A stretch of DNA of 59,865 nucleotides, filler included, from Sphacelaria rigidula (GCA_964200075.2; 6 parts of 6 records of this genome joined end to end with filler, not necessarily neighbours in it); one strand, 5' to 3'; shown: positions 1-58,288, numbered from the whole stretch's first letter. Notes: generated from the letters alone by a model not told the origin. A program made the numbers and translations.

Positions 1-2781
1 TGTTGGAAGGATTCCCGACATCAATCTGACTGGGTTAACGCCCACCTTCATGAGACACCCAGGAGGCAGTGCGGCACCCGTCTCCGTGTGTGGAAGTAGC
101 AAGACCAGGGAATGAAGCACCATCGTGGTCTATGCCATTTGGAAAATAGTTGGTGCGCTTTCCGGCTATCAATACTTCGAGGATGCGGCTTACTCTCGAC
201 GCGACTCGCCGAACAGTTTTGCACGGTTCGCGCTTGGTGATTAATCGTGACCGTCGTCCAGCGAAAACTCGGAATGTTCCGCCCCGGGTTGGCGGTGATC
301 CTACGTCAATGATGTCAATTGTAGGGCATAAAAGGTCGTGGATACACCCTGTGCAATGCAAAGCTTGCTTGGGCAAATTGCGTACAAAGGCGCTCGCGTC
401 ACGACCGTCGTAAACGGTTTTAATCCCTCTTTTTTCTACCGTGGATATATATACTTTCCTATACTTTCTATTTCTCGGGAAAGAATCAGGTGTTTATTTC
501 TACGTCACAGCGATGAAAGTGGGGGAACCTGCTGCCCTTCTGTATCGTGACGGTTGTCTTCTTCCTCCCATTTTCTGGCCGTGTGTTTTCATGTTGAGCT
601 GTTCGGGAGTCTGTGAATAAACACTTGGAACCTCATCTCTTGTCAGGGATGGTCAGGACATGATTAGAAGGACCGGCGTACGCCTGTGACCACTGGTTTG
701 AGACACGTGCCTTATGCGCGAAAAATAGTTTCAGTGACAACGATAACACACACATAATTACTGTAGTGGTAATTATTTCACAATCATAGTATTGATAGCA
801 ATACAAATAACGCATGCTTCGTCAGCATACGAAAGTCCTACTGTACGGTCGACAGGTATTCCAAGAAGAAGCAGGTGCTGCACAGGACACGACGTTATAC
901 CGGGTAATACGGACTCGGCGTCTCGTTTATCGGGGGACGTTCTGTGCCGTCTCTGTTCCATCATATGCATTCATTCCATTCTAGCGCAGTGTACATCTTG
1001 CGAAAATCAGACACCACCGGATGCTCACCACCACGGGGCATGCCGCTGCACGTGGGTGCTCCAATCCGCTCAAACGTTCCCGGGCTCCAGCAAGTTGTCA
1101 GCATCCGACTCCTCCTCCCTGTCCGCCGCGCTACTACCTGGTAACACCGACAACATGGTGAACAAAGTGGGAGGAAAGTCGGCTGGCGATGATGCCCACG
1201 CCAGACCCCATCGACGGTGTTGTCGTACGCGCCTCGGAAAGTAGAGAAGCGCCGCCACCTTCCTCTCTCGAGGAATAAGTCTTGAAATCTGGCACAGCTA
1301 ACGAGCATGCGGGAAGCGTACGTCAAGCCTCAATGAATATCGGGCGATGTGGAGGCTGACCAGCGATAGTTTTGACCCACCTTGTAATTCAGACACGCCC
1401 GAGAACCACCACAGCGTTCCCAATATCGATCACAACCTCGCCCTCACCGCGCAAATCATGCGCCATTTCCACGTCATCGCGACCCCAATCGATGAGGCAT
1501 GAAAAATCGGTATTTACCGTTAGTGTTGCACGCCCATATCGCCGCACCCCTTTCCCACATAACCCGCATGCCTACCGACCCTGACAGCGGAGGACACTTG
1601 GTCGAAGGTTGTGGTGGCGTCGTCGCTCAAAGTCCTGTCGCCGACATCGTATAATCCCGCTCGGCGAGGCGCCAGCCGTATGATAGTTATGCCCTCGCCC
1701 TCATCGACGAAGCGCCCGGCGGCAATCTCCGCAACCACGCTTCACGTAGCAATGTGAAAGGCAACGGCAACCGCCCCTGTCCAAGGGGCGTGAGGTTATC
1801 GAGGCGCAGGAGATACTGGTCAGCCGTCCAGTTGCCGTTCTCTCCTGTGTGCTCTCGACTTCCTTGCGAAAGGTACAGAGGCAGCTGTCCAGAGGCGACT
1901 GTCTGCGTTTAGATTGACGCTCTCCTCACCCAGGTGCATCGTGCTAGCATCCCTCGCTCGAAATAATTCTTCCACGAACCGAACTTTCCCCTCGGCTCTC
2001 CTCGACGCCGTCTTTGGCGCCCGTACGCATGCAACGCACCTCTCTGCCGCCCGCTGCTCCTTTCGCTTCTCCATCCTGTGGAGAGAATAGAAATAGTCAG
2101 GGGCGGAACACAGATATCCGCGGCTTGACACCCAGCCCTCCACAACTGCCGTCTGTGCCGCTGCGCTCGTGGCTGACATCCCATACCACGATTCCGCCGC
2201 GGCGGGGACCGCTTCGTCATCGACAAGACGCCGAAATGGGGGTTCGGGGCCTGGTGTGTCCGGCGGCCGCCAGTGGCACGCGCAGCACAAGAACTCGCCG
2301 GAGTGCACGGGACTACCGGTGCACATCGGACAAGGCGTCGGCCACTCCTCTGTCGAATCACCCGCCGCCTTTCCGTGTGGCAGCGAGATACGTGTCTGCC
2401 TTTTCGGGGGATGCACGTCGGCTTGCTCAGCACGCGGTTCTTCTCTTGAGGTGGGTGTCGTCGGCCGTTGCGCCCCCAAGAAGAAACCCGTCAGCATTCC
2501 GGCGCTACCTTCCCTTTCGATGCAGACGGCGTGTGCCACCCGCCCCCGATAGTAGGCTCTGGTCGTCGGTGATGGCTGTGCCGTCGCTGGTGCTACCCAG
2601 CGATGATTCATGGCCGGGAGCGGTATCACGCTTAGACCGCGCCTACTCGGGCATACTCCCGACCGCGGCGTCCCTGCTCTCATCCGCCGCCATACAGCCG
2701 GGTTCGCACGTGGATTGTACCACTCCTGCCAGTGAAGCTGGCGGCTCCTCTTCGCTGACGCACATCTTATTCTAACCTTAA

Positions 2782-2878
2782 CCCTTAGACCGCGAGATTA
2801 GTCTTTCTGGACCATGCATACATTTTTTCACTTGAAATTGATGCCGATTCAACAGGAGACTAACCTCGCGGTCTAAGG
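2782..2878. mobile_element. 97-bp piggyBac-like MITE
   Basis: TTAA|CCCTTAGACCGCGAGATTAGTCT ... AGACTAACCTCGCGGTCTAAGG|TTAA: TIRs starting CCC and a TTAA target duplication. Confidence 0.75.
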
Positions 2879-4573
2879 TTAATTAAGCCCTAGGCAGCAA
2901 CGGTCACCTCGGAACAGTTTCACAGACTGACAGTCCGGAGACATGCGAGGGTTTTCGGTGGACCAGAGGGGGGTTGAGGGAGGGGAGGGGGGTGTCTGTC
3001 CGCAGAGCAGCCGCGAAGCTCACCAAGTCAACCATGTGTGTCTGGAAGTTTCCCGCGGAAGATTCCAAGCCAGGAACGAGGCCCGAGAGACGCGGAATGA
3101 CCACCCTGACCGATCACGGCCGTCAAAATGAGCGCGTAGTTCCCCTACAGGTGGACAACAGGTTGACGAATTTTCTGTCTGGCGGTATTTTTCATTTGAG
3201 TCATGGCAAATCAACCATAGAGAGGACATGGACATAAATAACCCGTTTGTACGCTGCTCGTAGTCTTGGACGCCTTGCTGACACCTCATGTGTTGCCAGC
3301 ATAGCTTCACACTGTCTGTCGTGTTGTTGAACACTAAGCAGAGGCATGCAGTAAATTATGTTCAGTGGAGAGTGATGGCACGCTGATTGTTTATTGCCGT
3401 TGTATCCAGAGAAGACATGCTGCACACATACTGACTGTGCGCGCTAAAGAATGCACGGTCAACACGGGCCAGGGGTCCTCCGGAACTATTTTCGTTCAGG
3501 TACCCAGAATCCACATGGTGTGAAAAAAAGTGTTTTGTGCAGCTTGAAAAGAGTCGTTCCAACCCCCAACTGTGGCACAGTTCATCTCAATCCACCGGCG
3601 GGGGGGGTCCCCGTCCACGGGGTAATCGTCTAGTCAAGGAAAATATGTTCCTCTGTTGAAAAAACTGGGTTATTTTTCTTGTTGATTGAACGCCATATCG
3701 ATTTCCTACACCGTATATGGAGGTAGGGTCTTTTCTAGAGTCTATATTAAACCCCGAATGATATGTACAGCGGATGGTGACGTTCTTGGTGCGAACGTTT
3801 CCTGAAGCACGGGGAAACGACTGATCCCCTTACCTTCACCTGATTTGTTATCTATCTAAAGATATTTCGCGCATAAGATTCCATACTGAACTTGATATAT
3901 TACGAGCAGAGACGGAGTGTACCAAATCTGGATTTTCTCCTTCCAGTTTTGAGAGTTGTGCTTTGATATTTGGTCGGGAGTGTCGCTGAGAAAAAATGGA
4001 AAATTCACTTTCAGGATCTCGTTTTTTTTTCACGAATCAAGGACGATTTTGTGGAAAATGGTCATTATTCTCAGCCCTTAGCTCAATATGTCTAATCACT
4101 TTTGAGAAGGGAGATTTTAAATTGCTCCTGGAGAGTTGCAGAGCATGCTGCAAACGAAACAAGAGTGGGCCTTCTTATGCAATCCGTATCGCTCGTTCGT
4201 GAGAAACAGACGCTCAGCGCCAGCCTGACTTTCGTTTGTCTCATGAGTACTTGGAGCATCACCAGTTGACTATTGAAAACGCCCTCGCCTTCCGAACCCT
4301 AAGCATGAGTCTCTTGGAAATATTTCATTGTAAGAGAGCCGACACTATATTCATATGTTAAAAATTACTACTGAGAAGTGTGGAATATGTTGCGATGTCA
4401 TAGCTTTGTGTCGCAAGCGACGCTTGGTAGGCCACATTACTTCTCACGAAACGTCGTTCAAGGGAAATATACCCCATCGTTGTCTACCTCGACGCGAATC
4501 AGGTTTGAGCTAGATCATAACTTGATAGTTTCCCCTCCCCACCGTTTACGTGGTACGTCATGATCTCCACAAG

Positions 4574-4698
4574 GGCAAACATGGCGAAGCTGAGCACTTT
4601 TTCAGAAGCGCCGTTTCGCTATGGGAAGAAGCATAGGGCGCGACACTCCTGAAGTGTCTACAGGATTGGACAATCTTGCGAGGTGCTTGGCGGAACAG
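4574..4698 (+). pseudogene. Frameshifted TPR cassette exon (125 nt)
   Basis: AG|GKHGEAEHFFRSAVSLWEEA[-1 nt]GRDTPEVSTGLDNLARCLAEQ|GT; one base shorter than its three 126-nt sister exons. Confidence 0.75.
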
Positions 4699-5286
4699 GT
4701 GACGCGTCACGACCCTTCCGCTGAGAATATGTAACGACACTTCGAACTTCCAGACGCTCTGGATATACCGTTGACAATGTACAGCTCCGCTGCGTGGTAT
4801 CACAGCCAACTCAAAAGCTGAATCAAGGTATCGTTACGCAGACCCATAGTGTCACTTTCATTTGCTCCTTCACTCCCAACTCAAGTGTGTAGAGGCCAGG
4901 TCATTCCACGTGAGACCTGTTGTGCCTCTGGATATTTCAACAGCGGAGCAGTAACATTGTGCAACAGCATAACCCCGCATGATTGCATCCTTCCGTCGTT
5001 GAGCGCTTTCACCTCGGTGTGACGTGTACAGTAGTTCATTTTGTGGTCTACGAGACGGAACGTGCCGATACAGGTTGAAACGCGTTCACGCGATTGGTCA
5101 TATATACACCAAAGGGCGTAGGATTTCCTGCCGTGACGTGATCTTCCAACACTTGGCCACATCAGGCTTTTCTTGAGACGACGGAGGATAGCCATGTCCA
5201 GTTGTCGCGTGTCGTTCTCGATCGATAATAGTGTAACTTCTGTACTGAATATTGCAGTCCAAAGCCACGCCAACCGTGCCCCACAG

Positions 5287-5412
5287 GGCAAACATCATGA
5301 GGCTGACTTGCTCTATCTTCGCTGCATCGGGATTATGGAGAGCACCCTAGGCCCTGCACACCCATATGTTGCTACGGGGCTCAACAACCGTGGAGCACTG
5401 CTGGACTCTCAG
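5287..5412 (+). CDS. TPR (kinesin-light-chain-like) exon, 126 nt, phase 0-0; probably from an NB-ARC-TPR-type gene
   Basis: CAG|GKHHEADLLYLRCIGIMESTLGPAHPYVATGLNNRGALLDSQ|GT. Confidence 0.85.
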
Positions 5413-5532
5413 GTCATAATAGTTTTTGTTTCCAATTGTCTCGACGTTGACGTTGCCCTCTTGACAAAAAAAAAAAACTTCCCGTTCCTGTGGCAACTTC
5501 AGCGATGTCCGCCGTTTATACTCGCCCTGCAG

Positions 5533-5658
5533 GGTAAATATGCCGAGAGTGGGGACATGTACATCAGAGCTCAGGAAGTATTCGAGAATGCTGTCGGCCG
5601 CGATGGTGTCGAAGTAGTGGAAACTCTCAAAAATCGGGCGATGTGGTGCAAGAATCAG
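5533..5658 (+). CDS. TPR exon, 126 nt, phase 0-0
   Basis: CAG|GKYAESGDMYIRAQEVFENAVGRDGVEVVETLKNRAMWCKNQ|GTGAG. Confidence 0.8.
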
Positions 5659-5927
5659 GTGAGGGCCATTCGCAGTTTGTGGCACTTCAGGTGTGGACCA
5701 AGCGATGTCAATGTTTCAAGAACAGGTCGAGTAGAGTGTTGGGAGTCGTACCCAAAAAATAACTGGGAAGCGATTCCTGAAATTCTACCCCCATTTTGTG
5801 TACGTTGAGTACGACTTTCGAAATACCCCACAATTGAGTATATACTCTACTCGACCTACCCTTGCAATCTTTCACAATGTCGAGGATTGCACTGACAGGC
5901 AAGCGAACGGATCCTTGCGTCTGACAG

Positions 5928-6053
5928 GGACGCTGCGAAGAGGCCGACTTATTCTTTGCTCATGCCGTCGCGATTGGAGAAAGGATTTTAGGCCCTGACC
6001 ACCCGAGTCATGTTTTAACGCTGAACAACCAGGCCAATTCATTCAACGACCAG
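5928..6053 (+). CDS. TPR exon, 126 nt, phase 0-0
   Basis: CAG|GRCEEADLFFAHAVAIGERILGPDHPSHVLTLNNQANSFNDQ|GTGAG; absent from the ORF track. Confidence 0.85.
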
Positions 6054-6357
6054 GTGAGCGCCGGTAGGTGGCACATGTAGCTTTTACGCTGAGAATGACG
6101 CGCACCGATTTCATGCTATCCGGGTATGTCGCTGATAGGTACCTTCGTATTGCCAGCAGTACGCGAGGCGAATGTGGGGGTACAAATAGTCTCGACCATA
6201 CGTGGTCCCAAACGTTAACAGGAGTCCGCAGGTTGTTGTCGTTGTTATCATGGTACATATCGAACATTCGGATGTTGCGTTTTTGTCGTTTGCTCATGAT
6301 CACGTGGGGCAAGTTAACGGAGGCGAATGGAGCGGCCTGGTTACTAAAACGCCCCGC

Positions 6358-9895: not shown

Positions 9896-9995
9896 NNNNN
9901 NNNNNNNNNNNNNNNNNNNNNNNNNNNNNNNNNNNNNNNTTAATTAATTAANNNNNNNNNNNNNNNNNNNNNNNNNNNNNNNNNNNNNNNNNNNN
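9896..9995. other. Artificial contig-joining spacer (N-run + TTAATTAATTAA + N-run)
   Basis: 100-bp spacer with stops in all six frames; identical copies recur every ~10 kb. Confidence 0.97.
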
Positions 9996-14465: not shown

Positions 14466-14890
14466 GTGCGTGGGAGGACCGTGTGCTTTTTGGACCGCAT
14501 CGGATATTCGAACACCCCACGATCGACGTTTTTTCAAGACCGCTCGGGCAAGTCCCTGCGGGGACCGCGCCCCTGGCCCTGACTCTAACACTAACCCTAA
14601 TCCTAACCCTAATCCTAACCCTATAACCGTGGGGGTGTTTCAACTCCGATGTGGTATAATGCGTGAGAGGACCGCGTGCTTGGAGGACCGCTTCGAAATT
14701 TGAACATCCCTATGGTTAGGGTTAGGGTTAGGGTTAGGATTAGAGGCGCAGTCCCTGCAGGGACTGGCCCGATTGGTTTTGAAAGACGTCGATCCTGAAG
14801 TATTTCGAACTACGACACGGTCCTCTAGGCACGCGGCCCTCCCACACATTACAGCGGTCCAAAAAGCCAGCGGTCCTCCCACGCATTGCA
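14466..14890. mobile_element. Related MITE subfamily (outer) with a family copy (14655-14853) nested in its right TIR
   Basis: Outer TIRs GCGTGGGAGGACCG..GCTTTTTGGACCGCATCGGA and TCCGAT[insert]GCGGTCCAAAAAGC..CGGTCCTCCCACGC; inner copy flanked by GTGG/GCGG. Confidence 0.75.
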
Positions 14891-19890: not shown

Positions 19891-19990
19891 NNNNNNNNNN
19901 NNNNNNNNNNNNNNNNNNNNNNNNNNNNNNNNNNTTAATTAATTAANNNNNNNNNNNNNNNNNNNNNNNNNNNNNNNNNNNNNNNNNNNN
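19891..19990. other. Artificial contig-joining spacer
   Basis: Same 100-bp spacer. Confidence 0.97.
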
Positions 19991-29884: not shown

Positions 29885-29984
29885 NNNNNNNNNNNNNNNN
29901 NNNNNNNNNNNNNNNNNNNNNNNNNNNNTTAATTAATTAANNNNNNNNNNNNNNNNNNNNNNNNNNNNNNNNNNNNNNNNNNNN
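29885..29984. other. Artificial contig-joining spacer
   Basis: Same 100-bp spacer. Confidence 0.97.
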
Positions 29985-31353: not shown

Positions 31354-32671
31354 TGGAAAAAGAAGCAGTGACTGATAACATGATGTTGGTCCTTCAGCAA
31401 CCGGACCTGAAGAAACCCACCACGAAACTCGATGAACAGTGGCGAATCACGTGCCAATGAGCAAAGGAGTAGAACATGACACGAATTAGGCGCGACGCAG
31501 TGATGGTGATGCAGCGAAGCTACAGGCTTTGAACGGTACCTCTTTGGTGGAAGTACCTGTCATGAGTCTGTAATCAATCACCATGCCTCGGGGGTCAAAC
31601 TGGCCCATCCAACACTCGTTTGGTAGGGTATCGTAGGTTGGAATCCTGGCAGTGAGTACGTGAGCGTCGACCGTCGGCTCTCTCTGGTTCATGTCGTCCT
31701 TGAACATTGTGGATTTGAGTTTTGAAAAAATAGCAACTTCGACATAATCGTAGGACGGCGGCCGTGCTGATCTGTTTGGTGATGAATTGCAAGGCATTGC
31801 TGTTGCGAGATGAGTTGATCGCTTCGAGACTACGGGCTCCCCAATGGGCAGTAGCAGCAGGAGTACGTTAAGAGAAGCAATCCCCACAAAACCAGCCGAT
31901 TGTCATTCGAGATATTGAGTAGTCCTGCCCACCAGGTACTGACAACAGTCCCACTTTCGTAGAGAAATGCGTTAAACGCGACGACGGGTGGGCGCAACTG
32001 CTAGTCGCATCTAACACTGTATAGTATTAGGTATCAGCGTTGTGCTGCACATCGCAGCAGGAGCAGCAGCAGTCACGTAGTGTTTGCGTAAAACATTCAG
32101 CAGCACCTGTGTCGTGCTTGGCCTCCATGCCACGTAGTGTTTGCGTAAAACATTCAGCACTGCCGCCGTGCCACGAGTTGATTATATATTGTAGCTAGAG
32201 CCCCCCATTCTTACTTCTCGAGGACTGGACAAGGGTTGAAGCACTTGTGGCAAACTCAACACATGTATTCGGCGCCTGCAGCTTAGACAGGTGCTGCCAG
32301 TACTCTAGCACATGAATCAGTAGGTCCTAGAAAGAACATAGGATCCACTCCGCATCGTTTCTCTTGATTAATACATGATGTGCCGTGTTGAAAAGGCAGG
32401 AACGTTGTACACGGAGGCACTCCATAATCAGAGGCACTTTATCACTACAACATAGGCACACGTCAGCGGGGAAGGCACGACTGGTATCATTGTACGGCTG
32501 AGCATTGCCGCTATCCGACATTTTTTCCCCCTGCGATGCAGCAATGCTGACCGCACTTGCGGCAAATATAACGATAGACTGCTACAGGGTGTCCCCGTCA
32601 GCGATTTCGTCAAAAGCGAGTTTTGAAAACCAGCACACGGAAGCAGCCCGGCGCGCGCGGCAAGACATGAA

Positions 32672-34381
32672 ATATTTCACACCCTGGACAATACAACATG
32701 TTTCCAATATATATTGGTCGATCATGATGGAATTTTGCGATATATTGCCGGTGTAATATATATTGGTATATTGTACCCTTAGACTGCACATGTATTGCGC
32801 GCCCAATATATATTGATGCCGTGGGACTGCATACATATTGCCCGCCCAATATATATTGGAACTATTGGGTGGAACACACATTGTCCCATCAATATATATA
32901 TATTGGGGCAGCGTGGGCGACAGCATATTGCACGACCAATATATATTAGGGTCGCATTGGTTAGGACATTTTGACGGGTCAACATATATTGGGTCCGCGT
33001 GGGTGACAGTGTATTCGCCGGTCATTATATATTAGATATTATAAGTATCGTGTACGCTCTAGGAGAGATCCAGACGCGATGGATGCAGGAGCCCGTGCAG
33101 GTTGGGAAAAGCTCTAAAGGGAGCCGCAGAAGTTCGCGTGCATTACTCCGGAAAGTTGTCAAATGCGTTTGATATATATATATATATATATGTATACTGG
33201 TTAGACAATATGGTGACAGAAGAGGCGACCCGGTATATATGCCTCCTGATACCTATTTGGCCACCGGTGCGGGGCCACCCACCCCCTTTCCAGCATGTCA
33301 TATTAATATCTTGGCTAAACATCACGACGACAGAAAACGCGGGTCGATATGCGCCTTTTGGTACCCCTGTGGTCACCGGGGCTGTGTTGCTTATACCCTG
33401 GACAATTTAATATGTTCCAAGATGATACCAATACTTTGCATTGGAGCCAGCGCAAATATTGTCCTTTCAATGTATATTGTGTTGAGATCTCCTCGGAGAT
33501 ATTGAAGCAACAACATATATTGCTCTTGTCACGATCATGAAGTAATGTATGTCAATATATTGGACCTGCAGTTGCTCCGGGAAATAATGTATGTCAATAT
33601 ATATTGGACATGCAGTTACTCCGAGAATAAACCATTCAATATATATTGTGCATGCCGGTCGTGTATGTATTGAAGTTTCAATATATATATTGAGTCGAGG
33701 CGATGCGTAGCATATTGTTACCATAATATATATATTGATCGCAAACCATGCAGAAGTGCTGTTTTTCCAATATATATTGCGCACGCTGATCGGATAGCTA
33801 TTGTGTTGCCAATATATATTGAACGCGCTTGCGGAGGAGTATATTGAGCCTTTTCGGCATGTAAAATACGTCTTTGAATGGCGCCCGCGAACAAAGAACT
33901 TCCCACCATACTAATTCCAATACACTTTCCAATCTTTATGTTGAAAATCAATATATTTGGCTACATCAACATGTATTGTGACCGTCGGTTCCCTCGTGTA
34001 TTGTCTGCCCAACATATGTTGGACGCATTGACGCACGACATATTGGGGCGGCAATATATATTGGCGCCTCGGGTATCGAGTATATTGAATCGTCAATATA
34101 TATTGACCTCGGGTGGCAGCAACTATATCACTCGATGAATATATACTGGTGCCCTCTCGCACCAACATATTTCTCGGCCAATATATATTGAGGTGGCGCG
34201 TGTCGTGATATATTGTTCGGTCGATATATATTTGTTTGTCGCGAGCCTTGATGTGTTGATGGCACAATATATATTGACCCTCTCTCGTGTCATCATATTG
34301 CTCGCCCAACCCGACGCATCGATATATTGAGCGGGCAATATTATATATATTACATATTGTATTGTCCAGGGTGTGAAATAT
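32672..34381. repeat. Inverted-repeat-bounded element with a 42-43-bp-period interspaced array (yATATTG-N6-CAATATATATTG-N17/18), ~26 units
   Basis: Terminal IR ATATTTCACACCCTGGACAATACAA / TTGTATTGTCCAGGGTGTGAAATAT; third end-like copy ACCCTGGACAAT at ~33395; three array blocks. Confidence 0.85.
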
Positions 34382-35348
34382 GTCCAAGTTTCTTGAAGCA
34401 CCAAATGGCAAAAGTAGTGAACAAATACACATTCCCGCGACTCGAGAGCAACGAGCTTTTATCACGGGCTTTTCGTATGCACTCAACCTTCAATGTTAAT
34501 TCGAGCTATATTTCGTTGGCTGGGTCTCACAGATGTGCACAAAAAACGCCGGGAGAACTTTACTTACGGCCAAAAATTTGACTCTTTGCTGGACCAGTTG
34601 TTTCCTCATTGCTCAGATCGGTTCCACTTGTCCTTGTGGCCATTTACCGCAGTGTTTGATTGCGTGAGTGTGCATTTTTTTAGAGACTAGGGACAGTCCG
34701 CCACGGGTTGCCGCCGAAGAATTTGACCCCCTTGATGAAAAACTCACCATCATTGCCCGTCTTTCATCGCGAATTATCCTAGTTGATCCCATTTTCATTC
34801 GCAGTCGCTTCACGGGTAAGTTTGTGGAGTTGGTCCGTGGTTTGAAGAAGATGAGAGAATGTTTCTTACTTTGTATCGACGTCGCTTACGCGGTCTGTCG
34901 TGTTCCTTTTGTTGGCATACCGCGTTAGCAAGCCCTACGGTCGGTGCGGTACGGTACGATAGGATACGATACCGTACGGTACGGTACACCATCTCTGAAT
35001 ATGGAAGCAAAAGCAGCCCCAAGCTACAACCCCGTGTGCAAACGTGTAAGCGTGTTGAACTGCTGGCTGCGAACAACAGACGTCGCCAAACACCGCCAGT
35101 GGTGATACGTGAGAAGTGTGCGCGAAATGTGGTCTGTGCGGAATGCTGAGGCTACCGGGAGAATATCTGCCCATGAAACAAGTTTAATCTTGGCCGAACA
35201 ATCACTTCGTGCACCCTTAACAGCGGAGTTTGTATCTTGACGTCAATATGCGAGTGCTGCTGTATACAAAATTTCATACCTTGGACAAGGAAAATGTATT
35301 GCATTGTCACAAAGTAGTCTGCTTACAGTACCGACTATTGCGCCTATT

Positions 35349-39878: not shown

Positions 39879-39978
39879 NNNNNNNNNNNNNNNNNNNNNN
39901 NNNNNNNNNNNNNNNNNNNNNNTTAATTAATTAANNNNNNNNNNNNNNNNNNNNNNNNNNNNNNNNNNNNNNNNNNNN
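39879..39978. other. Artificial contig-joining spacer
   Basis: Same 100-bp spacer. Confidence 0.97.
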
Positions 39979-46269: not shown

Positions 46270-48594
46270 TTGAAAAGCGGAGTTTTTCGCCACACACGCT
46301 CGGGCTCGCATGGTCGATGTGAAAAACAGAAGTGCCGTGAGGTTGGCTGCTACACAAGGCCGTCATTCGGTGTAGCGGGTAGCGCGAAGGTCGAGTTCTG
46401 TGCCACGCACGCTCGGCCTGGCATGGTGAGTGTAAGAAACAAGAGGTGCGGCGAGGAGGGCTGCTCTACATGGCCATCGTTTGGTGTAGCGCGTGGCGGG
46501 AAGGCGGAGTTCTGCGCCACGCACGCTCGGGCTGGCATGGTCAGTGTAAAAAACAAGAGATGCGGCGAGGTTGGCTGCACCACGAGGGCGTCATTTGGTT
46601 TGGCGGACAATGGGAAGGCGGAGTTCTGCGTCAAACATGTTCGGGCTGGCATGGTCGATGTGAAAAACAAGAGGTGCAGCGCGGTTGGCTGCTTCACAGG
46701 CCGGTCATTTGGTGTAGCAGGTAGCGGGAAGGCGGAGTACTGCGCCACGCACGCTCGAGCTGGCATGGTCGATGTGAGAAACAAGAGGTGCGGCGAGGTT
46801 GGCTGCTTCACGAGGCCGTCATTTGGTGTGGTGGGCAGCGGGGAGGCGGAGTTCTGCGCCACACACGCTCAGGCTGGCATGGTCGATGTGAAAAGCAAGA
46901 GGTGCGGCGAGGTTGGCTGCTCTACATGGCCGTCATTTGGTGTAGAGGGTAGCGGGAAGGCGGAGTTCTGCGCCACACACGCTCGGGCCGGCATGGTTGA
47001 TCTGAAAAGCAAAAGATGTGGCGAGATTGGCTGCTCCACAAGACCGTCGTTTGGTGTGGCGGGTAGCGGGAAGGTCGACTTCTGCGCCACACACGCTCGA
47101 GCAGGAATGGTCGATGTGAAAAGCAAGAGGTGCGGCGAGATCGGCTGCTCCACATGGCCGTCATTTGGTGTGGCGGGTAGCAAGATGGCGGAGTTCTGCG
47201 CCACGCACGCTCGGGCTGGCATGGTTAAGCTGAAAAGCATGAGATGCGGCGAGGTTGGCTGCTCTACACGGCCGTCATATGGTGTGGCGGGTAGCGGGGA
47301 GGCGGAGTTCTGCGCCACACACGCTCGGGCTGGCATGGTCGATGTGAAAAGCATGAGATGCGGCGAGGTTGGCTGCTCTACATGGCCGTCATATGGTGTG
47401 GCGGGTAGCAAGAAGGCGGAGTTCTGCGCCACACACGCTCGGGCTGGCATGGTTACTGTGAAAAGCAAGAGATGCGGCGAGGTTGGCTGCTCCACAAGGC
47501 CGTCATATGGTGTGGCGGGTAGCGGGAAGGTAGAGTTCTGCGCCACACACGCTCGGGCTGGCATGGTCGATGTGAAAAGCATGAGATGCGGCGAGGTTGG
47601 CTGCTCTACAAGGCCGTCATATGGTGTGGCGGGTAGCGGGAAGGTGGAGTTCTGCGCCACACACGCTCGGGCTGGCATGGTCAGTGTGAGGAACAAGAGA
47701 TGCGGCGAGGTTGGCTACTCTACATGGCCGTCATATGGTGTGGCGGGTAGCGGGAAGGCGAGGTTCTGCGACACACACGCTCGCGCTGGCATAGTCGATG
47801 TGAAAACCAAGAGAAGCGGCGAGGTCGGCTGCTTCACCTTGCCGTCATTCGGTGTAGCGGGTAGTGGGAAGGCGGAGTTGTGCGCCACGAACGTTCTAGC
47901 AGGCATGATCGATGTGAAAAGCAAGAGGCGCGGTGAGGTTGGCTGCTTCACGAGGCCGTCGTTTGGTGCGGCGGGTAGCGGGGAGGCGGAGTTCTGCGCC
48001 ACACACGCTCGGGCTCGCGTGGTCAGGGCAAGAGCAACCACGCGCGGCAAGGAAGGTAGTAATAAGGCCAGCCATTCGTCGGGTGCCGGTCGCAACGCGA
48101 GCGACGGTGGTCGCAGCGTTGAGATGCATCGTAGCTCGCGCACCAGTCGTGGTAGGCGAGGCGGTATAGACTCAACGATCTCGCCGCCGGCCGCCACGAG
48201 ACAGCCCGTCAGCGCTGCGGCAGCGGACGGGGCTTCACCGAATAGGGCAGTGAGGTGCATGGAAATGAAAATGGAGATGACTCTCCACGTCACGCGTGTT
48301 CCTGAAGCGATAGCGAGCAATGAATTGGCTTCGGCACAATCGACCGTCCATTGCAGCGTGTCTGACGGCAATTCTAGCAGCATCAAGGACGCGAGCTGCG
48401 GTAGCGGCATCGCCAGTGGAAGGAGAAGCGCCAAGCGGCTACGTAGAGTAGCGCCGGTGAACGTGGCATTTCGTGTGGCAACGGCGGCTAATGTGATGTC
48501 TGTGCAAGAGGGCGACGATGTGAAGTCGGAGTTGGGGGTGTCTGCGCCTGATGGTCACGTGTCCGCGGTGATATCCATCGAGCGAAAGAAGTAG
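46270..48594 (+). CDS. EsV-1-7 family cysteine-rich repeat protein; 15 x 38-aa repeats plus a low-complexity tail (first in-frame ATG at 46423)
   Basis: Repeat C-X4-C-X16-C-X2-H-X12 (CGEVGCSTRPSFGVAGSGKAEFCATHARAGMVDVKSKR) on 114-nt tandem units, uninterrupted 774-codon ORF. Confidence 0.92.
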   Translation: MKSGVFRHTRSGSHGRCEKQKCREVGCYTRPSFGVAGSAKVEFCATHARPGMVSVRNKRCGEEGCSTWPSFGVARGGKAEFCATHARAGMVSVKNKRCGEVGCTTRASFGLADNGKAEFCVKHVRAGMVDVKNKRCSAVGCFTGRSFGVAGSGKAEYCATHARAGMVDVRNKRCGEVGCFTRPSFGVVGSGEAEFCATHAQAGMVDVKSKRCGEVGCSTWPSFGVEGSGKAEFCATHARAGMVDLKSKRCGEIGCSTRPSFGVAGSGKVDFCATHARAGMVDVKSKRCGEIGCSTWPSFGVAGSKMAEFCATHARAGMVKLKSMRCGEVGCSTRPSYGVAGSGEAEFCATHARAGMVDVKSMRCGEVGCSTWPSYGVAGSKKAEFCATHARAGMVTVKSKRCGEVGCSTRPSYGVAGSGKVEFCATHARAGMVDVKSMRCGEVGCSTRPSYGVAGSGKVEFCATHARAGMVSVRNKRCGEVGYSTWPSYGVAGSGKARFCDTHARAGIVDVKTKRSGEVGCFTLPSFGVAGSGKAELCATNVLAGMIDVKSKRRGEVGCFTRPSFGAAGSGEAEFCATHARARVVRARATTRGKEGSNKASHSSGAGRNASDGGRSVEMHRSSRTSRGRRGGIDSTISPPAATRQPVSAAAADGASPNRAVRCMEMKMEMTLHVTRVPEAIASNELASAQSTVHCSVSDGNSSSIKDASCGSGIASGRRSAKRLRRVAPVNVAFRVATAANVMSVQEGDDVKSELGVSAPDGHVSAVISIERKK

Positions 48595-49872: not shown

Positions 49873-49972
49873 NNNNNNNNNNNNNNNNNNNNNNNNNNNN
49901 NNNNNNNNNNNNNNNNTTAATTAATTAANNNNNNNNNNNNNNNNNNNNNNNNNNNNNNNNNNNNNNNNNNNN
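49873..49972. other. Artificial contig-joining spacer
   Basis: Same 100-bp spacer. Confidence 0.97.
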
Positions 49973-57883: not shown

Positions 57884-58006
57884 AACGCTGTTCTGACAAC
57901 CGCGTGTACCACCCGACAATTTTCACTGAAACCTATCTGAGCTACAAAACGCTGTTCTGACAACTCCGTGCACCACCCGACAAATTTTCACTGGAACCTG
58001 TCTGGA
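57884..58006. repeat. Tandem duplication, 2 x ~63 bp
   Basis: AACGCTGTTCTGACAAC...ACCACCCGACAATTTTCACTG twice. Confidence 0.8.
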
Positions 58007-58188
58007 GTATAACATGGTGTTCACGTGGCTTCACGACGACACCCGAAATCACGGTGTCAGTCTCTGTACTTGCTAGCAGACCCGGTGCTGGTTACACAAA
58101 GAAAAAAAAATAGTAAGAAACTAGGAGTGAAAACCACAGCCTGAAAGAAATTTCCCCTCAGCCTCTGACCTATCGCTCCACGAGATAA

Positions 58189-58288
58189 ACCGAACACCAA
58201 GACGGTGCGGTCCCCATTATTGACCGAACATCAAGGCGGTGCGGTCCCCGTTAATGACCGAACATCAAGACGGTGCGGTCCCCGTTAG
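58189..58288. repeat. Minisatellite, 3 x 34 bp
   Basis: ACCGAACATCAAGACGGTGCGGTCCCCGTTAATG consensus. Confidence 0.9.

Follow-up and report, generated by a model that had tools for sequence, protein, structure and literature searches.

The stretch of DNA analysed here, referred to as the window, comprises 59,865 bp from Sphacelaria rigidula (GCA_964200075.2), and all coordinates are counted from its first base. Between positions 32678 and 34375 it contains an element of 1698 bp that is probably an old copy, somewhat decayed, of a non-autonomous class II transposon of the cut-and-paste type; this transposon is non-coding, exists in many copies and has internal arrays that are putative phased protein-binding sites. 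An initial annotation of the window had offered two explanations for these arrays, a protein-binding lattice within a non-autonomous mobile element and a processed array of guide RNAs. The first of these is supported by terminal inverted repeats (TIRs), an 8-bp flanking duplication, the lack of coding capacity, the different flanks of other copies and the presence of the array motif inside the TIRs. The element is ordinary in kind and unusual in its regularity.

About 64% of the element (1089 of 1698 bp) is made up of three array blocks built around the 12-bp palindrome CAATATATATTG. With at most one mismatch, this motif has 16 matches in the window, all within 32705-34276, where the chance expectation is a mean of 0.06; none of 100 dinucleotide-preserving shuffles reached 16. 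Allowing two mismatches gave 29 matches, 27 of them inside 32672-34381, and these covered 24 of the 25 palindrome starts that the initial annotation had listed. The palindrome at 33553 is a shortened variant, CAATATATTG, and the one listed at 33724 is located at 33726 because of extra AT steps. The density of ATATTG amounts to 19.3 per kb inside the element vs 0.28 per kb outside, a difference of about 70-fold.

Each unit consists of ATATTG, 6 bp, the palindrome (CAATAT joined to ATATTG) and a spacer of 17-19 nt, and carries three ATATTG-type half-sites. Successive palindromes are spaced by 49, 50, 43, 43, 47, 43 and 43 bp in the first block, by 43, 42, 42, 42, 42, 45, 44 and 42 bp in the second and by 43, 42, 42, 43, 42, 43 and 43 bp in the third, which makes 42 or 43 bp in 17 of 22 cases. 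Judged by the motif counts against the shuffles and by these spacings, the regular dual-spacer array noticed at the outset is real and far beyond chance. Its single polarity was confirmed as well, all three blocks having the same orientation when read directly.

Conservation was observed to be confined to the motif. In a sequence logo anchored on the palindrome, every position of the 12-mer has 0.9-1.7 bits and those of the upstream half-site (positions -12 to -7) have 0.65-0.98 bits; most spacer positions had less than 0.2 bits, with a maximum of 0.46. At the ends of the motif, C occupies position 0 in 22 of 25 units and G occupies position 11 in 18 of 25. The 17-nt spacers agreed at 4.56 of 17 positions on average vs 4.39 ± 0.10 after shuffling, and spacer GC contents of 0.57 and 0.53 compare with 0.42 in the whole element. 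A few spacers are related by duplication, as the initial annotation had cautioned: four pairs share at least 10 positions vs 1.2 expected, and a tandem repeat at 33539-33655 (2.8 copies, 83% matches) represents recently duplicated units. Such a pattern would be consistent with selection on the motif only, the spacers being free to vary.

The element starts with CACAC and ends with GTGTG; its limits were set by the ends of family coverage and by loose ends in public contigs. The ends of its TIRs coincide with these family boundaries. The TIRs are exact over 19 bp and extend to 33 nt at 94% when the flanks are included. An exact terminal inverted repeat of 25 bp had been described before; the inverted repeat exists, and it is composed of the 19-bp TIR and 6 bp of a nearly palindromic 8-bp duplication. 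Contig boundaries and flank comparison accordingly shift the element ends from the earlier 32672 and 34381 to 32678 and 34375. The adjoining 8-mers, AAATATTT on the left and AAATATGT on the right, form a direct repeat with 7 of 8 positions identical, seen at this copy only. When flank lengths from 2 to 10 were compared, 8 alone gave a direct repeat, flanks of 2, 3, 4 and 5 bp sharing 0, 0, 2 and 2 positions. Both TIRs contain a variant of the half-site, CAATAC/GTATTG, 11 bp from each tip.

Behind 34375, the majority letters in the flanks of 27 other copies read GAATATTC, an 8-bp palindrome resembling AAATATTT, followed by CACACC, which is like the element tip. This may reflect a preference for AT-rich palindromic targets or frequent insertion beside or into related elements, agreement among these flanks being just 0.4.

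To place the element in its family, we used public sequencing data. Eight runs from three studies, one of the runs labelled an algae metagenome, matched part of the stretch, and the contigs of four of them (X1, X4, X5 and X6) were aligned on 32000-35000. Contig pieces were counted at an identity of at least 90%, and essentially all of them lie on 32678-34375. There are 6085 pieces on the element in X1, 5612 in X4, 2360 in X5 and 127 in X6, a run that is RNA by guess only and whose pieces carry no information on expression. By identity, the X1 pieces divide into 934 with at least 99%, 1982 with 95-99% and 3169 with 90-95%. The left flank is single-copy and represented by one contig per run, with a depth of 64.5 (X1), 30.1 (X4) and 6.95 (X5). 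Summed depth over the element ranges from 26,893 to 214,819 in X1, from 11,345 to 77,987 in X4 and from 464 to 6,103 in X5; it exceeds the flank depth by a factor of hundreds to thousands and is taken only as a sign of many copies, not as a copy number. Unlike sequence begins before 32678 and behind 34375, where 27 contigs of X1 continue with an agreement of 0.4, that is, with different flanks. The pile-up of contigs and the divergence of flanks at both ends therefore identify the element as a member of a dispersed repeat family. The right flank at 34424-34928 has no cover in X1 and X4.

Contigs from other copies, 106-171 nt long, align over two to four units including their spacers at 90-100% identity. 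Because they align across the spacers, the series of spacers is family-wide and not peculiar to this locus. Differences between this copy and the family majority were examined for 40 of 121 entries, 34 of the 40 lying inside the element. Nine of these 34 fall on motif positions, and there the family letter changes the sequence toward the motif in eight cases, away from it in none and in neither direction in one. The family majority restores, for example, CAACATATGTTG at 34010 to a perfect palindrome, and also CATTATATATTA at 33023. Considering that the family majority differs at nearly all examined positions, the present copy is old and diverged. In the consensuses of loose ends, an ATATTG occurs near 34250 and a palindrome near 34306, neither of which this copy retains; a 7-nt insertion near 32770, behind the spacings of 49-50 bp, is specific to this copy. 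These consensuses imply that the ancestral array was even more regular, with about 27 units. In the transposing lineage the motif was maintained, and in this copy it is decaying.

A third, end-like sequence before block 2, which had been pointed out in the initial annotation, is indeed present (Table 1). The family majority has A at 33407, giving a perfect CAATAT half-site in this internal copy. Since contigs of other copies bridge both of its sides, it belongs to the design of the family and does not represent a local nested insertion. Summed contig depth peaks at 33313-33413, just before and over the internal copy, with 214,819 in X1 vs about 50,000-170,000 elsewhere in the element, and contigs with joints of internal deletions are numerous among the copies. 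Together, the peak and the joints suggest shorter subfamilies that have this part in common.

The open reading frames (ORFs) of the element are translations of the motif, and the one scanned against Pfam had no match. A 147-aa pseudo-ORF from block 2, used in a protein search for mis-annotated copies in public proteomes, returned four candidates, none of them significant. Throughout the window, 30 ORFs of at least 100 aa near the element and at least 150 aa elsewhere were scanned with Pfam, a scope that exons below 100 aa could escape. No transposase, Cas, Nop or other nuclease or effector domain was detected among them, in line with the earlier remark that no effector gene is adjacent, and EsV_1_7_cys and TPR were the only families above the cut-off. 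Rfam yielded no match over the whole window at the gathering threshold. Inverted repeats at the family ends, a duplication of fixed length (at one copy), dispersed copies with different flanks and the lack of an internal transposase gene together correspond to a class II element with TIRs.

In such a transposon, cleavage at the CACAC...GTGTG tips would be the task of a transposase supplied from another locus, and insertion of the element would create an 8-bp target-site duplication. The 26-27 or so units of 42-43 bp, organised in three arrays of the same polarity, would provide a phased lattice to which the transposase, or else an accessory protein, could attach by its sequence-specific DNA-binding domain, and one such domain could recognise the half-site both near the cleavage position in the TIR and along the arrays. 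With a period of about four helical turns, all sites would come to lie on one face of the DNA. This may favour cooperative multimeric binding, which would mark the ends and help to bring them together, and the single polarity of the blocks would make the two ends non-equivalent beyond the terminal repeat. Comparable arrangements have been described: in the cited section of PMC1636448, Lemi1 proteins bind the terminal repeats of Emigrant and, cooperatively, its subterminal repeated motifs, and the cited section of PMC10368747 has multiple BED domains of the Hermes octamer binding the left end of the transposon.

Several points weigh against the interpretation as a transposon with a binding lattice. 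We infer binding of the motif by a protein from its conservation alone, and a transposase as that protein, like the superfamily, is putative. The target-site duplication is evident from one copy only. No autonomous partner or transposase was found by Pfam among the 30 ORFs of the window. There are 99 joints in all, and among the 15 examined none skips the whole element, which gives no sign of excision or empty sites. At 1.7 kb and about 64% arrays, the number of sites in the element greatly exceeds the apparent needs of a transposase. Finally, all blocks have the same polarity and are not mirrored at the two ends, which is less usual for subterminal repeats, although asymmetric ends occur in other transposons.

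A bolder version of this interpretation, to which we would give rather long odds, holds that the lattice of about 80 half-sites is a scaffold for a filament or large oligomer of a brown-alga transposase yet to be characterised, perhaps a member of the giant KDZ group. If so, it would represent a new mode of marking transposon ends, in which the length of the array and not that of the TIR sets the efficiency of mobilisation, and this would explain the success of the family.

As to the superfamily, the most likely affiliations would be with KDZ (Kyakuja-Dileera-Zisupton)/Zisupton-like or hAT-like elements; the 8-bp duplication, seen at one copy, agrees with both. Duplications of hAT elements are usually 8 bp long, and their consensuses are YARNG for the tip and nTnnnnAn for the target. 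The one copy compared departs from both: its tip is CACAC, and in AAATATTT position 2 is occupied by A and position 7 by T. Subterminal repeats are known from Ac/Ds and En/Spm, with many of them in EnSpm/CACTA elements, and MITEs (miniature inverted-repeat transposable elements) have a size limit.

What the element shares with hAT elements such as Hermes and Ac is the 8-bp duplication, the shortness of the terminal repeats and a large number of subterminal repeats, which in hAT elements are bound by a transposase in multimeric form (PMC10368747). However, hAT elements are rare in the brown alga Ectocarpus, for which the cited part of PMC12477816 gives 128 copies, compared with 6403 for KDZ (its Table 1) and 6366 for EnSpm/CACTA. 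The KDZ group shares the 8-bp duplication, which is stated for Zisupton in the relevant section of PMC12730594 and for Cryptococcus KDZ1 in that of PMC11343200, and also the CA..TG termini, which the same section of PMC12730594 assigns to Kyakuja and the CMCT clade; Kyakuja duplications, in contrast, are 7 bp long. An autonomous KDZ copy would encode a KDZ transposase with a CxC domain, and none was detected in the 30 ORFs scanned. EnSpm/CACTA elements (CMCT) resemble ours in their CAC..GTG termini (same section of PMC12730594), but were rejected because the 8-bp duplication does not fit the 2-5 bp of the clade and flanks of 2-5 bp are not direct repeats here. MITEs and other non-autonomous transposons, with Emigrant/Lemi1 as an example (cited section of PMC1636448), likewise have TIRs, a duplication, high copy number, no coding sequence and a repeated motif that also occurs in the TIR. 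Our element is larger than typical MITEs with its 1.7 kb, and its strictly phased 42-43-bp lattice of one polarity, occupying about 64% of the length, differs from their irregular or mirrored clusters. The motif string was not found in the literature searched, nor does the paper on the Ectocarpus transposable-element landscape, in a search limited to its text, mention a family having such ends. The family may already be catalogued in the Ectocarpus library or in Repbase.

Among the explanations that dispense with a role in transposition, the one that survives best, though still unlikely, is that the arrays are a passenger minisatellite of 42-43-bp units that grew in or was picked up by the transposon. 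The AT-rich core would then be kept by (AT)n slippage, gene conversion or mutation mainly on G/C and not by protein binding. Transposons with internal tandem repeats exist, and the recent duplicates at 33539-33655, the few related spacer pairs and the palindromes that gain and lose AT steps all point in this direction. However, the spacers have diverged to the random level while 18 motif positions per unit are conserved across about 25 units, and neutral decay would erode the A/T positions too. The C and G at the motif ends are conserved as well, the same half-site occurs in the terminal repeats, and the family majority keeps motifs that are lost in this copy.

We attach even less weight to the idea that the lattice is used, or also used, by the host, either as dispersed sites for a host protein or as an element related to chromatin or replication that was spread by the transposon. 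The CAAT...ATTG form presumably resembles homeodomain-type pseudo-palindromes, the copies are very many with about 80 half-sites each, and the period of about four helical turns is regular. Against this, eight of the nine examined motif differences from the family majority destroy the motif in this copy, a pattern that speaks against the motif being under selection here; moreover, this copy has no link to a neighbouring gene and no binding protein is known.

It is very improbable that the arrays are processed guide-RNA arrays of the CRISPR or TIGR type. Their layout of constant short motifs alternating with variable segments of fixed length, two per unit, is shared with TIGR and CRISPR arrays, and block 3 folds better than its shuffles (z = -3.75). 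A similar excess on the opposite strand (z = -3.54) shows that the effect lacks strand specificity, which is expected of DNA palindromes. The stem-loop ATATTG-N6-CAATAT suggested by the initial annotation does form in some units, but as RNA it is weak, with a mean minimum free energy of -1.09 kcal/mol and no structure in 9 of 25 units. Identical spacer series in other copies were among the observations that the initial annotation would count against the guide-array alternative; contigs of other copies do match across the spacers at 90-100%, and the series is common to the whole repeat family. Searched with at most two mismatches, the long spacers had no match elsewhere in the window, vs 0.2 expected. 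A search for the unit pattern in 185,579 prokaryote genomes and in IMG/VR found no occurrence. TIGR arrays, as presented in PMC12045711, have two alternating repeats of 8-12 nt, spacers of 9-12 nt and units of 36 nt; they contain box C (CCA) as well as box D (UG), and a Nop gene lies next to them. By that description, the geometry does not fit here: units are 42-43 nt long, with 6-nt and 17-19-nt spacers between constant blocks of 12 and 6 nt, and there is no UG...CCA frame and no neighbouring Nop-domain (Tas) gene among the 30 ORFs. CRISPR arrays differ in their identical direct repeats of 25-36 nt, locus-specific spacers and nearby cas genes; in the present arrays 12 + 6 nt are constant, the same spacers recur throughout the family and no cas domain was found in the 30 ORFs. 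Both types also contrast with the eukaryotic, multi-copy nature of the present element.

A remnant of an integrated giant virus (phaeovirus), with the units as iterons of a viral replication origin, is barely credible: the arrays are iteron-like and an EsV-1-7 repeat gene lies 12 kb away, but brown-alga genomes themselves have seen an expansion of the EsV-1-7 family (PMC12477816), the unit pattern and the terminal 19-mer are both absent from IMG/VR viral contigs, and many dispersed copies with TIRs and a flanking duplication are the signature of a transposon. In metagenome contigs, the 19-mer of the TIR occurred at six loci, four of which share an apparent single conserved gene. All six are unrelated outside the 19-mer and lack the palindrome motif, and they were read as chance matches.

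We regard the attractive but wrong lead of a eukaryotic CRISPR/TIGR-like guide array as settled by these comparisons. What stands instead is a very regular case of motif-only conservation inside a transposon. It would provide a defined candidate binding site for a brown-alga transposase, namely CAATATATATTG plus the ATATTG half-site at fixed spacing. Should the partner prove to be a KDZ or another poorly studied transposase, this would offer a defined cis-element for biochemistry and possibly for transposon tools in brown algae.

Table 1. Components of the element and its flanks, with positions in the window
Feature	Position	Strand	Basis
Left copy of the 8-bp target-site duplication, AAATATTT	32670-32677		Only flank length 8 repeats; family boundary at 32678 from loose end
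Left TIR, 19 bp exact, CACACCCTGGACAATACAA; half-site variant CAATAC at 32689-32694	32678-32696	+	Repeat search; contig boundary
Array block 1, 8 units of ATATTG-N6-CAATATATATTG-N17-19; first unit without upstream half-site	32705-33034	+	Motif matches; logo
Non-array internal region 1, with (AT)12 microsatellite at 33172-33196; no coding signal	33045-33391		Contigs of other copies bridge to block 2
Left-end sequence repeated internally, ACCCTGGACAAT..AA.ATGT, lacking the CACAC tip	33394-33415	+	Repeat search, 21 nt at 90%
Array block 2, 9 units, three recently duplicated (33539-33655)	33456-33821	+	Motif matches; tandem repeat search
Non-array internal region 2	33850-33954		Sequence reading
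Array block 3, 8 regular units and a 9th (about 34306) whose palindrome is lost here and present in the family	33955-34347	+	Motif matches; loose ends at 34309 and 34343
Right TIR, 19 bp exact; half-site GTATTG at 34359-34364	34357-34375	-	27 X1 contigs diverge behind 34375, agreement 0.4
Right copy of the 8-bp target-site duplication, AAATATGT	34376-34383		Flank comparison

Elsewhere in the window, a 774-aa open frame at 46270-48594 (+) consists of 15.5 tandem units of 114 bp, each an EsV-1-7 cysteine-rich motif, and matches PF19114 in 15 stretches (E = 1.8e-204). Within brown algae the EsV-1-7 family has expanded, and its other known members are mostly those of giant viruses. Another open frame, at 5137-5808 (+), contains TPR_12 repeats (E = 7.8e-11) and is probably an exon of a gene for a TPR protein. 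Five pairs of 44-N blocks recur at intervals of about 10 kb (9896-9995, 19891-19990, 29885-29984, 39879-39978 and 49873-49972) and look like an artefact of masking or assembly, not biology. A short interstitial array at 14591-14623, CTAACCCTAATC repeated 2.8 times, resembles telomere repeats. At 57884-58287 there are two further short tandem repeats, one comprising 1.9 copies of a 64-bp period and the other 2.9 copies of a 34-bp period.

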